From IMG/VR virus record IMGVR_UViG_2703718823_000004: a stretch of 12,202 nucleotides of DNA. The stretch is one strand, 5' to 3'. Every line of letters begins with the position of its first letter. Position 1 is the stretch's first letter. Origin of the DNA: a virus (Duplodnaviria; Heunggongvirae; Uroviricota; Caudoviricetes). Shown here piece by piece: positions 7,545-11,383 of this stretch. The notes below the pieces were generated by a model that saw only the letters and a program-made list of their open reading frames with translations, made no database searches and was not told where the DNA came from. The position numbers and the translations under genes were made by a program.

Positions 7545-7780
7545 TAAAACCTCGCCAGTTTAAATCCTGGTTTTCCCCGCCTGCGGCTCACCATCGCGGC
7601 AAGCCTGCGTTCCCACTCCTGACGTCCGGCGCGGATCTGAGAAAGGCTTTCCAGCGTCAGTTGCTGTCCGTTGAAGGTGACAGACTTCCCCTCAAGTACG
7701 GCCATTTCCGCTTCACGGTACCGCTGTATCATTTCTCTGGCTTCTTCTGTGCTCACAACCAGCCTCCTGATGTTATCCAT
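7544..7780 (-). CDS. W: Head-tail joining protein gpW
   Basis: 78 aa, MDNIRRLVVSTEEAREMIQRYREAEMAVLEGKSVTFNGQQLTLESLSQIRAGRQEWERRLAAMVSRRRGKPGFKLARF; the C-terminal RRRGKPGF resembles the lambda gpW C-terminus RRRGPAGF, and it lies between terminase and portal as in lambda. Confidence 0.85.
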   Translation of the reverse strand: MDNIRRLVVSTEEAREMIQRYREAEMAVLEGKSVTFNGQQLTLESLSQIRAGRQEWERRLAAMVSRRRGKPGFKLARF

Positions 7781-9876
7781 GGATTATCTTCCGCACGCTC
7801 CGTCCGCAGTTTTTTCTTCCGGCGACGGCGTTTTTCTGCCCCGGCCGTCAGTTCCGGGGATACCGTTTCACCAGAACACTCCTGCGGGAAGACGAGCCAC
7901 GTTTCCCGCTGTGCCCAGTCCGGTGCGGAGGGCCAGCGGATCTTTTCGTAACCATGCAGAACGGCAAGCGCATCCGCATAAACCAGCAGGTCAAACGCCT
8001 CGTTAGCTCCCCTGCCCGGTTTTCGCCATTTTCCGTCACTGCCGCGCTCTTCATAGGTCAGCTCATCGTAAAACCATCGCCCCAGCCAGTCGGGAAAGTG
8101 GATATAGTTCGGCCCTGGTGTGTCACGCCACAGGGCATTATTTACACGGTCCTTAAACGCATCCGTCTGAACCAGCCACAGCGCGACATCGCCACTGGCT
8201 CTGGCACGGCGGGCACTTCTGCCGGTATTATCCGGGAAGGTACGGTTAATCAGCCTGTCACGGCGAAGTCCATCCCCCTTGAACAGAAACACCCTGTTGC
8301 CCAGTCCGTCACTCCGGCAACGACGCCAGAAACGATAGGCGTTATCTGTCACCCCGGCTTCCCCTCCCGTATCCACCGCCATGGCCATCAGACGCATGCG
8401 CACATCCGGATCAGAAGCCAGCGGCCATGTTTTATGGAACACATCCGTCAGCAACAAATCCCAGTCCTCCGGATATGCCGCCGGATCAACCGGCAGACTT
8501 TCACCGTTGGGACTGCAGCGCAGTGAATGCCGGATGTTATAGCGATCAACAATCCAGCGTTCCCCCTGCTCTCCGTATCCGGTGATCTGCACAACAAAAC
8601 GGCGATTTTTACCGCCCTGTACGTCAACCGTTGCCTCAATAAAACGCACACCATCCGGCACAGATCGCCGGGGAAACGGCTCGGCACGCTGTTCAAGCAG
8701 TTCACTTTTACGCTGTTCCGTGGCTGAACGGGGCAGATAGGGTCGTCCGATATCGGTGTTCACCACCGCTTTCAGGGTCTCTTCACTGCCGGTTCGCTCA
8801 TACTCTTCTTCTGCCGCCAGCAGTTTAAAAATCAGTTGTTCCCAGGTCTGAAACGCCGCGGCCGGCCCCTCCATCCAGAATGACGCAATCCGGGAATTTC
8901 GTGGCGTTCCGGTGATACTGCCGTCCGCCACCGCCCGTTCACCTTCACGAAGCCAGATCCCTTTGTTATTCAGTTCGCGTTTCTGCTCAGGGGCAATCAG
9001 CCCGCGACAATGCGGACACATCAGACGGGCAGCCTGACCGGCAGCCACAAAATCCGGGTTATTCCGGTATCCGGTCATGTTATCCATCACCGGCTGAAAA
9101 TATTCCCCGCAGTGCGGACACGGCCAGTACCACCGGCGGCGGTCTCCCCGGTTATACAGTGACAGGATCCCCGTTGTTGGCGGTGCCTCATGTGCGCCGC
9201 CACAGCGCCATTTGGTGTCAGTGATATCCCGCCCCGGCGAACTCTCGACCAGGGTCATCCCCGAGGACATAAAGGTGGTGGTACGCTTTGATGCCAGGGT
9301 GAAGGCATCCCCTTCCCCGTCCACGTTTTCAGGGAAACGGTCATAATCCGTCAGCGCCACACGACGGTAATCCGAAGAAGAAAATACAGTGATCGACGGC
9401 CAGCCAATCTTCAGGAAGGAGCCGTCAAGAAACATTTTATCGTGGACGTTGTTGTCATTACGGGAAGGACTGAGACGCTTACTGACCTCCGGGCTGTGAC
9501 GAAACGTTCTGGAAAGACGCGTTCTGGAGTGTTCCCGCGCCTTCGTCTCGGTCATTTGCACCACCAGCATATCCGCCGGATCACAGATGATGCCGTACAC
9601 AATCCAGCCGTCAATCAGCCCTTCGGTTTTCCCGGTTCGCGCAGGTCCCACAAACACCACCGCGTCATATTCACGGGCTGATAATGTATTAATGGGGTCA
9701 ATCATATAGGGCGTCAGCGATGACTCCCACGGACCGGAAGTATTGGCTCCCCGTGGTACCCGCATATAACGCCTGATGGCTTCCGCTACTGGTAACCGGC
9801 TGGGCGGGCGAAACAGCGAGGCCACTTCGCGCCAGATATCGGATGCGCGGCTATGGCTCTCGTTCACCTGATTCAC
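7753..9876 (-). CDS. A: Terminase large subunit, gpA-like
   Basis: 707 aa. GTG start at 9876 overlaps the Nu1 stop (minus ATGTGA); lambda A also starts with GTG as I recall. N-terminus MNQVNESHSRASDIWREVASLFRPP parallels lambda MNISNSQVNRLRHFVRAGLRSLFRPEP. Walker A VFVGPARTGKTE; Cys pairs CPHCGEYF...CPHCRG as in the gpA zinc-finger region. Confidence 0.95.
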   Translation of the reverse strand: MNQVNESHSRASDIWREVASLFRPPSRLPVAEAIRRYMRVPRGANTSGPWESSLTPYMIDPINTLSAREYDAVVFVGPARTGKTEGLIDGWIVYGIICDPADMLVVQMTETKAREHSRTRLSRTFRHSPEVSKRLSPSRNDNNVHDKMFLDGSFLKIGWPSITVFSSSDYRRVALTDYDRFPENVDGEGDAFTLASKRTTTFMSSGMTLVESSPGRDITDTKWRCGGAHEAPPTTGILSLYNRGDRRRWYWPCPHCGEYFQPVMDNMTGYRNNPDFVAAGQAARLMCPHCRGLIAPEQKRELNNKGIWLREGERAVADGSITGTPRNSRIASFWMEGPAAAFQTWEQLIFKLLAAEEEYERTGSEETLKAVVNTDIGRPYLPRSATEQRKSELLEQRAEPFPRRSVPDGVRFIEATVDVQGGKNRRFVVQITGYGEQGERWIVDRYNIRHSLRCSPNGESLPVDPAAYPEDWDLLLTDVFHKTWPLASDPDVRMRLMAMAVDTGGEAGVTDNAYRFWRRCRSDGLGNRVFLFKGDGLRRDRLINRTFPDNTGRSARRARASGDVALWLVQTDAFKDRVNNALWRDTPGPNYIHFPDWLGRWFYDELTYEERGSDGKWRKPGRGANEAFDLLVYADALAVLHGYEKIRWPSAPDWAQRETWLVFPQECSGETVSPELTAGAEKRRRRKKKLRTERAEDNPWITSGGWL

Positions 9877-10349
9877 ATATCGGCCTCATCACAACAGTCA
9901 ATGACTGCCTTTTCCAGTGTGTCGCGGATCTCATCAACCACAATCTGTACTTCATTCAGTTGTGATGCGGTCCACCCTCTGTCCCTTTCCAGCCGGTCAG
10001 GCCAGGTTTCCAGTACCTGAACTATCGCTTTCACCACGACAGAAAAGGACCGCCTGACATCACTGACAGGCACAAGCTGAACAGTTTCATGCTGAAATTT
10101 AAGACGCTCGCGCTCGGACTGATACCATGCCTTCCGATCATGTGGGTTCATCTCTTCATCTTCGGAAGTCGGTGGTTTTTCCAGCAACGAAATAATCAAA
10201 TCCGTCAGGAGATACAGTTTTTTCTTTTCATTACTGCCTGGTGCAAGAGGAACATCCGCCATTCTGGCGGCAACAGTCTGCCGGTGCAGACCTGAAAGGG
10301 CTGCCAGTTGATTAATATTTAACTTCATATTTTTCAGCTCGCCGTCCAT
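9873..10349 (-). CDS. nu1: Terminase small subunit, Nu1-like, with N-terminal winged-helix DNA-binding domain
   Basis: 158 aa. ATG at 10349 with a GGAGGG Shine-Dalgarno 5-6 nt upstream. MKLNINQLAALSGLHRQTVAARMADVP resembles lambda Nu1 MEVNKKQLADIFGASIRTIQNWQEQGMPV; acidic C-terminus; directly upstream of and overlapping the large subunit. Confidence 0.88.
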   Translation of the reverse strand: MDGELKNMKLNINQLAALSGLHRQTVAARMADVPLAPGSNEKKKLYLLTDLIISLLEKPPTSEDEEMNPHDRKAWYQSERERLKFQHETVQLVPVSDVRRSFSVVVKAIVQVLETWPDRLERDRGWTASQLNEVQIVVDEIRDTLEKAVIDCCDEADM

Positions 10350-10532
10350 TTACATCCCTCCACATAAACCGCTGAACAAAAGTGGCTCTTTTTTTGTAAA
10401 GAAATGCCGCCATATAAAGATGTCGAACAAAAATCAACCATAATCATCATCTTTTTAATGCTAAACACATTAAAAACAATAAGTTACCATTATGATGATG
10501 ATGACGATAAAATCACAAAAATGCGCCTTTTT

Positions 10533-10549
10533 CCGCGCCGCCCGCCCCG
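10533..10549 (-). other. Candidate cosN (cohesive-end site)
   Basis: Minus strand reads ACACGGGGCGGGCGGCGCGGAAAAAGG, sharing ACGGGGCGG with the lambda cos junction (TTACGGGGCGGCGACCTCGCGGG). It lies about 185 bp upstream of the Nu1 start (lambda: about 190 bp), followed toward Nu1 by AT-rich DNA with repeated GGCG(G)CATTT and ATTTTTGT motifs. Confidence 0.4.
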
Positions 10550-10586
10550 TGTTCAGGCCCACCCCACCAGGAGGACCCGCAAAAAT

Positions 10587-10605
10587 GATAATGATTATCA
10601 TTTTC
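10587..10605. promoter_or_regulatory. Fur-box-like palindrome (18/19 match to GATAATGATAATCATTATC on the minus strand)
   Basis: Plus GATAATGATTATCATTTTC; minus GAAAATGATAATCATTATC. Embedded in a perfect palindrome AAAATGATAAT-G-ATTATCATTTT (10582..10604). Function unproven; could instead be a terminase or other dimer-binding site. Confidence 0.35.
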
Positions 10606-10915
10606 AATGTAGTCCAGTTTCTTCCACCATCGCACCGGACAGGCGACTATGAGGGGACAACGCCGCGCTCCGTTAACGCGGTAAACCCCGGTGTGTATCG
10701 TTTTTGATTATCCCCGCACACTCGCGCAGAGGAGTCTCCCGGTAGGGCTGCGGTCTCTGTTCATGTGGGAATACGGCGACGATACTGCGCAAAGACATGC
10801 TTCAGAAATACATAAGTAAACTAAAATATTGTATCTCTGTGGCTAATTACGTAAATTGGTGGCTTGGCCCCTTTAGCCACCGGCAAATCTTCAGCGGATT
10901 ATCCTTGGCCGGTTT

Positions 10916-11383
10916 TTATCTGAGGCATTGCTCACGAATGTATAGCTGTGCCCCTTCCAGCTGCTTCTGCATTGTCATCAACCGTTCTCTGAGGATGAAA
11001 TAATCCCGTTCAGCGGTGTCTGCCAGTCGGGGGCCGGTTGCATTATCCACGCCGGAGGTGCCGGTGGCTTCACGCACGGTACCGTGGCAGGTGGCGTTGA
11101 TCCGCAGGCGCTTACGACCAGCGGCAACATCAGCACGCAGAGTTTCATTTTCAGCTCTCGCATCAGCTAATTCCCTCGAGTATTTTGCATCGAGCGCAGC
11201 AACATCGCGCTGGCGCACCTGCATATCAGTAATGGTTGCGTTTGCCAGCTCCAGCTCTCTGGCTTTTTTATCTCGCTGCGCTTTGTAGGTGATGGCGTTA
11301 TCGCGGTAATGATTCAGCCCCAGACTAAGCGCACCACAGGCCACCAGCAGGACAATAATCACCACACACAGAACACGGTTCAT
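10916..11383 (-). CDS. Rz: Rz i-spanin (inner-membrane spanin subunit)
   Basis: 155 aa with N-terminal transmembrane segment [21 protein letters not shown] followed by a charged helical region ([55 protein letters not shown]); ATG at 11383 with a GAGGGGGA Shine-Dalgarno. Confidence 0.9.
10978..11163 (-). CDS. Rz1: Rz1 o-spanin lipoprotein, embedded in the +1 frame of Rz
   Basis: [61 protein letters not shown]: lipobox LVVSAC, proline-rich mature part, and the conserved [25 protein letters not shown] signature of lambda Rz1. Confidence 0.88.

Follow-up and report, generated by a model that had tools for sequence, protein, structure and literature searches.

The minus strand of positions 10419-10578 of the window, by which we mean the whole 12,202-nt stretch of tailed-phage DNA analyzed here, very probably serves a lambdoid prophage of the VT1-Sakai and Stx2a long-tailed phage type as its cos site, an assignment that covers its identity and architecture and holds for any length of the cohesive end. 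A sequence-only reading of this DNA had proposed a cos site of lambda-like architecture here, and the proposal stands up well: cosQ, the left half of cosN and the I2 element align with phage lambda, the order R3, IHF-type site, inverted R2 and R1 recurs in all subgroups of related sites, and the infectious phage Phi1720a-02 carries the same core (PMC6328086). We regard the site as real and almost certainly functional, and as a new allele in a known class of site.

Genomic setting and terminase proteins

The minus strand of the window is the late region of a lambdoid prophage, with the lysis gene Rz (10916-11383) followed by the small terminase gene, the large terminase gene, the portal gene and the head genes, an order that agrees with the annotations of VT1-Sakai and of E. 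coli S19-651. The 650 bp around cos are 94–96% identical to Stx2a-converting phages (for example Stx2_499) and to VT1-Sakai (Sp15), and a 311-bp stretch around cos is matched in 815 of 5,426 complete E. coli genomes. The closest of these, S19-651, is 99.4% identical over the 311 bp, and its annotation has the same unbroken packaging and head gene set as the window, where the packaging and head ORFs are likewise unbroken and of sizes that agree with the annotated relative. The packaging module is also found in Stx phages.

The large terminase (707 aa, 7753-9876, minus strand) belongs to the gpA family, with ATPase and endonuclease parts (PF05876 and PF20454, approximately 1e-81 to 1e-84), and is 24% identical to lambda gpA (E = 6e-19). 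The small terminase (158 aa, 9873-10349, minus strand), which the sequence-only reading had taken for Nu1, is instead a DUF1441 protein: this is its sole Pfam match (PF07278, 6.5e-49), it matches phrog_141 (terminase small subunit) strongly and phrog_57 weakly (5e-10), and BLASTP against lambda Nu1 detected no similarity. With a PF07278 small terminase adjoining a gpA-type large terminase downstream of Rz, the locus is a DUF1441-type lambdoid packaging module. A model of small-terminase residues 1–64 (pLDDT 86) has a strand-helix-helix-wing-strand-helix topology, and its best Foldseek matches are small DNA-binding domains of two phage-packaging entries (7lw0/7lwr/7lxs and 6hn7_B) and MerR-type winged helix-turn-helix domains, at weak E values of 0.03–0.3; from this model we predict a Nu1-like N-terminal winged helix-turn-helix. 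By sequence comparison the window cos is homologous to that of lambda in cosQ, cosN and I2 and belongs to the branch with DUF1441 small terminases, along with Fels-1, Gifsy-2, mEp213/LLS, mEp460, cdtI and VT1-Sakai. Gifsy-1 was also considered as a member of this family and was rejected, its small terminase being annotated as a lambda Nu1 homolog and similar to that of phage 21.

cosQ and the cosN left half match lambda

We built the lambda junction by placing the right end of its record next to the left one, and aligned this to the window. The lambda junction reads GATGATAATCATTATCACTTTAC-GGGTCCT-(23 nt)-ACG/GGGCGGCGACCT/CGCGGGTTTTCGCTATTTATG (slashes mark nick positions throughout) and that of the window AATGATAATCATTATCATTTTTGC-GGGTCCT-(24 nt)-ACG/GGGCGGGCGGCGCGGAAAAAGGCGCATTTTTG, with base-for-base alignment in cosQ, the left half of cosN and I2. 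The cosQ heptamer GGGTCCT (10572-10578, minus strand), a packaging-termination element whose role and conservation are described elsewhere (PMC4669245), matches the lambda one exactly and is kept across relatives; it lies 24 bp upstream of the predicted top-strand nick, compared with 23 bp in lambda, and just outside the interval that the sequence-only reading had singled out. Downstream of it, cosN (10533-10550, minus strand) can be written ACG/GGGCGGGCGG(CG)/CGG, its nick positions being predicted by homology. From 10550 to 10533 the minus strand reads ACGGGGCGGGCGGCGCGG, 183–201 bp upstream of the small-terminase ATG at 10349, which bears out an earlier estimate of about 185 bp.

The lambda junction TTACG/GGGCGGCGACCT agrees with the window through ACGGGGCGG and then parts from it, just as had been noticed from the letters alone. 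The segment ACG/GGGCGG (10550-10542) is identical in lambda, Gifsy-1, cdtI and mEp213, as is the CG flank. Exact ACGGGGCGG occurs once in the window, and the composite GGGTCCT-N(20-26)-ACGGGGCGG had a single match there and none across 200 shuffles, so the site exceeds what chance would produce. In lambda-like phages cosQ, bp 1–6 of the end and the CG flanks are conserved while bp 7–12 vary naturally (PMC4669245), and the divergent right half in the window is therefore expected and unsurprising. As a positive control, the same reading rule applied to Gifsy-1 returned ACG/GGGCGGCAGCGT/CG, from the junction ACG/GGGCGGCAGCGT/CGCAGG; the published Gifsy-1 variant is GGGCGGCAGCGT, with changes at bp 8, 9 and 11 (PMC4669245). 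Of the features of a lambda-like cos, the window has cosQ within 20–25 bp upstream of the predicted top-strand nick, ACG/GGGCGG, I2, a complex cosB layout and a gpA-family large terminase. Between the window and lambda, the DNA site is far better kept than the enzyme that would act on it: near identity in cosQ, I2 and the left half of cosN stands against only 24% in the large terminase.

A literature text search did not find the window end sequence GGGCGGGCGG(CG), and text searches with candidate ends (GGGCGGGCGGCG, GGGCGGGAGCGT and others) matched only unrelated primers or constructs. A search of IMG/VR for contigs ending inside cosN, as a proxy for virion ends, gave only one that ends adjacent to cosN; it has an isolate-genome-type UViG identifier, and its end is probably an assembly break. 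An Rfam search of 10200-11000 gave no meaningful match.

A separate observation concerns the DNA 8 bp upstream of cosQ, where GAAAATGATAATCATTATC (10587-10605, minus strand) matches 18 of 19 positions of the 19-bp Fur-box consensus, with 0 such matches expected by chance. The equivalent place in lambda reads GTAGATGATAATCATTATC (16/19), and some relatives carry a different palindrome or a T-run there; a literature search found no paper connecting cosQ with a Fur box.

A cosB-like layout conserved by position

Between cosN and the terminase gene the DNA is AT-rich (28–39% GC against about 50% around it), as the sequence-only reading had remarked. Nearest to cosN is the I2-equivalent CGCGGAAAAAGGCGCATTTTTGTGATTTT (10509-10537, minus strand), which lies between cosN and cosB and aligns with lambda CGCGGGTTTTCGCTATTTATGAAAATTTT and with the corresponding DNA of cdtI, yong2 and Cr-LKS3. 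In lambda, cdtI, yong2, Cr-LKS3 and the window alike, a GC(N2-3)TTT(T) motif begins 11 nt after the start of CGCGG, so that CGCGGAAAAAGGCGCATTTTTG of the window I2 aligns with lambda CGCGGGTTTTCGCTATTTATG at an equal 11-nt offset.

Beyond I2 stand motifs in the order and orientation of lambda cosB, R3-I1-R2(inverted)-R1 (PMC9026076). The R3-equivalent (10494-10507, minus strand; +41 to +54, counted from the end's first base) consists of three overlapping TC(G/A)TCATC octamers formed by TCATCATC repeats and aligns with lambda R3, TTCTTCTTCGTCAT; other small-terminase subgroups have an R-like motif at +42 to +50. The I1-equivalent (10474-10486, plus strand), between R3 and the inverted R2, is an IHF-like site, AAACAATAAGTTA, with one mismatch to WATCAANNNNTTR and an adjoining A/T tract. 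One-mismatch matches to the IHF consensus are not enriched in the window, and the consensus is perfect at the same position in two sister subgroups. The R2-equivalent TCATCATC, extended to ATCATCATCTTTTTA (10444-10451, plus strand; +97 to +104), is inverted relative to R3 and R1, and sister subgroups have an inverted R-like motif in the same position. The R1-equivalent TCGACATC, extended to TTCGACATCTTTATA (10419-10426, minus strand; +122 to +129), is in direct orientation and takes part in a repeat pair, CATCTTTTTA and TATAAAGATG. Across the family R2 and R1 carry shared subgroup-specific variants.

Against an expectation of 2.5, the window has 10 copies of the octamer TCRWCATC, 5 of them falling within the 89 bp from 10419 to 10507. 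When 106 related loci from IMG/VR and GenBank were grouped by the helix region of their small terminase, R-like or IHF-like motifs appeared at +42–50, +61–63, +96–98 and +121–123 in every subgroup examined. This positional conservation supports reading the R3-, R2- and R1-like motifs and the IHF-like site as putative small-terminase and IHF sites. The complementary ATC and GAT runs noticed in the sequence-only reading are real, ATCATCATC (10443-10451) and GATGATGAT (10494-10502) being the arms, 42 nt apart, of a perfect 9-nt inverted repeat, and the suggestion that they are candidate small-terminase sites flanking an IHF-type site is consistent with the layout conserved across the subgroups.

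Of the direct repeats, GGCGCATTTTTGT and GGCGGCATTTCTTT do both lie on the minus strand, but we rejected them as paired binding sites. Conservation outside the window subgroup is limited to the first of them, which is the I2-equivalent; the second is found in that subgroup only. ATTTTTGT is present twice (as ACAAAAAT on the plus strand, 10427-10434 and 10515-10522), at a spacing of 88 bp and not the roughly 120 bp first given. Five more exact TCATCATC octamers lie on the plus strand between 903 and 2810, in the tail and head gene region, and we left them out of cos. A terminator-like hairpin, CCGCTGAACAAAAGTGG followed by a T-run (10369-10385, plus strand), sits just upstream of the start of the terminase gene on the opposite strand and is present only in the window's small-terminase subgroup.

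The cohesive end may be shorter than 12 nt

The top-strand nick (window minus strand) is predicted by homology to fall after ACG, between 10548 and 10547. For the bottom strand (window plus strand) homology offers two places, 10538/10537, which would leave the 10-nt GGGCGGGCGG, and 10536/10535, which would leave the 12-nt GGGCGGGCGGCG, and a CG is present after both, at +10 as CGCGG, the homologous flank, and at +12 as CGG. From the comparisons that follow we tentatively favor a cohesive end of 10 nt, 5'-GGGCGGGCGG. The earlier expectation that the end would differ from the lambda 12-mer stands for its right half, and the 12-nt length is the part that may have to give way.

The distance from ACG to the flank CGC(G/A)GG is 12 nt in lambda, Gifsy-1, cdtI, mEp213, phi458 and Fels-1, 11 nt in VT1-Sakai and 10 nt in the window. 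A first scan of IMG/VR found 12 nt between ACG and CGCGG at 105 of 124 loci. In the window's own subfamily, defined in IMG/VR by the left flank GGCCTGAACACG, the distance is 10 nt in 43 of 65 loci, 11 in 18, 12 in 3 and 7 in 1, and cosQ lies 24 bp from ACG/ rather than 22. The distance from cosQ to CGCGG stays at 34–35 bp, as 24+10 in the window, 23+12 in lambda and 26+9 in Cr-LKS3. Spacer and overhang lengths are anticorrelated (Spearman -0.82) over 64 haplotypes that fall into about four independent lineages, and with so few lineages behind it a compensation between spacer and overhang is only suggestive.

Deposited genome records and one measured end also bear on the place of the bottom-strand nick. 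The records of lambda, cdtI and Cr-LKS3 begin at the cohesive end with CGCGG directly after it, that of cdtI with GGGCGGGAGCGT/CGCGG, and the yong2 record begins exactly at CGCGGG. For Cr-LKS3, whose record has CGCGGAA after the end, the authors report an experimentally determined 9-nt 5' end, GGGCTCGCG (PMC9303873), which means that end length is not fixed at 12 in the small-terminase family of the window. Record starts at or before CGCGG, the constant distance from cosQ to CGCGG and the 9-nt end of Cr-LKS3 together favor placing the bottom-strand nick immediately ahead of CGCGG, which would leave an end of 10 nt. A further record, mEp460_4F5 (LR595868.1), starts with CCACGGGGCGGGAGCGCGGAAAAAGG, a cosN 3 nt shorter than that of mEp460 (GGGCGGGAGCGGCGCGG), which could be a real variant or an end-joining artefact.

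Closely related prophages have spacers of 10, 11 and 12 nt, although some copies could be decayed sites. Perhaps related E. coli prophages carry a natural polymorphism in cohesive-end length, in which the two conserved nick sites, each flanked by CG, stand 10, 11 or 12 nt apart and indels in the spacer between cosQ and cosN offset the change, keeping cosQ 34–35 bp from the bottom-strand nick. If this is true, a lambda-type terminase would work without a rigid 12-bp stagger, distance from cosB and cosQ would set the place of the bottom-strand nick and recognition of CG/GGGC that of the top-strand nick, and the 9-nt end of Cr-LKS3 would be one point on a continuum also present inside E. coli.

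The competing reading of the length, which we consider somewhat unlikely, accepts the same cos and disputes the overhang alone: a rigid 12-bp stagger measured from ACG/ would give the 12-nt GGGCGGGCGGCG, with the bottom nick at 10536/10535, 2 bp nearer to cosB than in relatives. Both nicks would then follow a CG, and the CG flank is reported to be highly conserved (PMC4669245); the resulting 16-bp CG-12mer-CG has 10 of 16 symmetric positions by hand count, as does lambda cosN (PMC9026076). In the frame ACG/X/CGGAAAAAGG, X is 12 nt in 43 of the 65 IMG/VR loci of the window subfamily, and lambda tolerates small changes of cosN-cosB spacing, though a 3-bp deletion is already severe (PMC9026076). 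Against this, CGCGG with the I2 motif 11 nt later is the right flank in lambda, cdtI, yong2 and Cr-LKS3, and the window has its equivalent starting 10 nt from ACG/. A 13-nt X, as in some sister prophages, would cost them the CG flank, yet the phage DNA of one of these, in strain 12E129, is packaged (PMC8112680), and Cr-LKS3 is an instance within the family of an overhang other than 12 (PMC9303873). We consider improbable a 12-nt end that lies 2 nt farther left, and leave a little weight for other outcomes.

Evidence that the site is functional

The phage Phi1720a-02 (KF030445) has a cosQ-cosN-I2 block identical to that of the window, joined to a different cosB and small terminase. Phi1720a-02 is infectious and was used to lysogenize Citrobacter rodentium (PMC6328086); having lysogenized a new host with this very block, it indicates that the module is functional. 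Strain 12E129 carries Stx2a phages with an additional G in cosN, the 11-nt spacer variant; these were packaged into DNase-resistant particles (PMC8112680), as was Sakai Sp15 (PMC2669165). The record of ASU11 (ON416862.2), derived from mitomycin-induced particles, lacks exactly 44 bp relative to 1720a-02, GAACACGGGGCGGGCGGCGCGGAAAAAGGCGCATTTTTTGATTT, which span cosN and I2; this stretch was probably dropped from the physical ends of the genome in assembly, in which case the deposited record is without the cos core.

The comparison with 1720a-02 also places mosaic joints inside the cos region (window 10509-10640). The DNA to the left of cosQ is common to phages with a true lambda cos and Nu1 (PhiR5_1), and the cosQ-cosN-I2 block is common to two types of cosB and small terminase, that of the window and that of 1720a-02, which diverge between I2 and R3.

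That the site is instead a relic, no longer cut in the window element because the prophage is defective or a 2-bp deletion has struck cosN, we judge to be quite unlikely. Most relatives have 12 nt (105/124), so that the 10-nt form resembles a deletion, length variants from 7 to 12 nt occur, and many Sakai-type prophages are defective (PMC2669165). However, in its own subfamily the 10-nt form outnumbers every other allele (43/65), and it is linked to a +2-bp change in the spacer between cosQ and cosN that restores the 34-bp distance; the identical form is found in Phi1720a-02, which produces infectious particles (PMC6328086), and all packaging and head ORFs of the window are intact.

Far less probable still is that this is only an intergenic regulatory region upstream of the late genes (a promoter, under Fur or IHF control), with packaging by another mechanism or from another site. 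There are weak promoter-like matches on both strands at 10484-10518, a near-consensus Fur box at 10587-10605 and AT-rich DNA with an IHF-like site, but the number of promoter-like matches, 3, exceeds only modestly the mean of 1.2 in shuffles (s.d. 1.2). The large terminase is of the gpA family, whose members studied in the literature consulted cut 5' cohesive ends, the agreement of cosQ, cosN and I2 with lambda far exceeds chance, and GenBank records of relatives begin or end exactly at this site. Headful (pac) packaging, with circularly permuted, terminally redundant virion DNA, is argued against indirectly by a large terminase that matches only gpA-type ATPase and nuclease families and by the presence of a complete lambda-type cosQ-cosN.

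A model for cutting and packaging

By homology with lambda, we infer from these elements how proteins would bind and where the strands would be nicked. IHF, at the site between R3 and the inverted R2, may bend the DNA, with DUF1441 small-terminase dimers bound to those two elements across the bend and R1 as a third small-terminase site. The bound small terminase would anchor the gpA-family large terminase on cosN, and the large terminase would nick the top strand after ACG (10548/10547) and the bottom strand 10 to 12 nt downstream, to give a G-rich 5' overhang starting with GGGCGG. In window coordinates packaging would then proceed to the left, by way of the genes for terminase and head, until cosQ and I2 act at the next cos to terminate it.

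Apart from its spacing, the site is an expected feature of a lambdoid prophage. The module is widespread: approximately 15% of complete E. coli genomes have it, as do long-tailed Stx1 and Stx2 phages, and a known cos site fixes the physical genome ends for annotation. In strains with many lambdoid prophages, knowledge of cos also helps to predict cross-packaging of prophages, cosmids and satellite elements. The 10-, 11- and 12-nt spacing variants offer a natural series for testing how a lambda-type terminase measures the distance from nick to nick.

Comparison with known systems

The window shares with lambda the cosQ sequence GGGTCCT, the ACG/GGGCGG left half-site, a homologous I2 and a gpA-family large terminase, as well as three R sites of equal order and orientation, R3 and the inverted R2 enclosing an IHF-type site, and a small-terminase start codon some 190–200 bp from the end. 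The two differ in the R sites themselves, which are CGTTTCC(G/T)TTCT in lambda and TC(A/G)(T/A)CATC in the window, where R3 lies about 10 bp nearer to cosN. They also differ in the small terminase, which is Nu1 in lambda and a DUF1441 protein without BLAST similarity to it in the window. Read as 12 nt, the window end departs from that of lambda at positions 7–10 and 12, and its CGCGG flank stands 10 nt rather than 12 from the predicted top-strand nick.

Closer relatives are mEp213/LLS, cdtI, mEp460, phi458 and Fels-1, whose small terminases are of the same family and 48–59% identical to that of the window. These phages have cosQ, GGGCGG, the CGCGG(A/G) flank, the I2 motif and the R3/IHF/R2/R1 positions in common with it, and the LLS/mEp213 end has been inferred in the literature as GGGCGGCGCGCT (PMC12315714). 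They differ in spacing: in them 22 bp separate cosQ from the nick and CGCGG comes after 12 nt, where the window has 24 and 10. The cosN variants of Gifsy-1 and N15 resemble the window in that only the right half of the end varies, with cosQ, bp 1–6 and the CG flanks kept (PMC4669245). Where they differ is in the small terminase, which is Nu1-type, in the end, for which 12 bases are described (PMC4669245), and in the variants, which are base substitutions and not length changes.

The most distant comparison is with the Cylindrospermopsis phage Cr-LKS3, which has a cyanobacterial host, a genome of 66% GC and no evident R sites of the TCATCATC type, and whose ends were determined experimentally, while those of the window are predicted from homology. 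Nevertheless, its small terminase is of the window's family (33% identity), its end starts CG/GGGC and is followed by CGCGGAA and a GC..TTTTT motif, and a cosQ-like GGGTCCC lies 35 bp (26+9) from CGCGG. Cr-LKS3 is thus a precedent, within the small-terminase family of the window, for an overhang shorter than 12 nt (PMC9303873).
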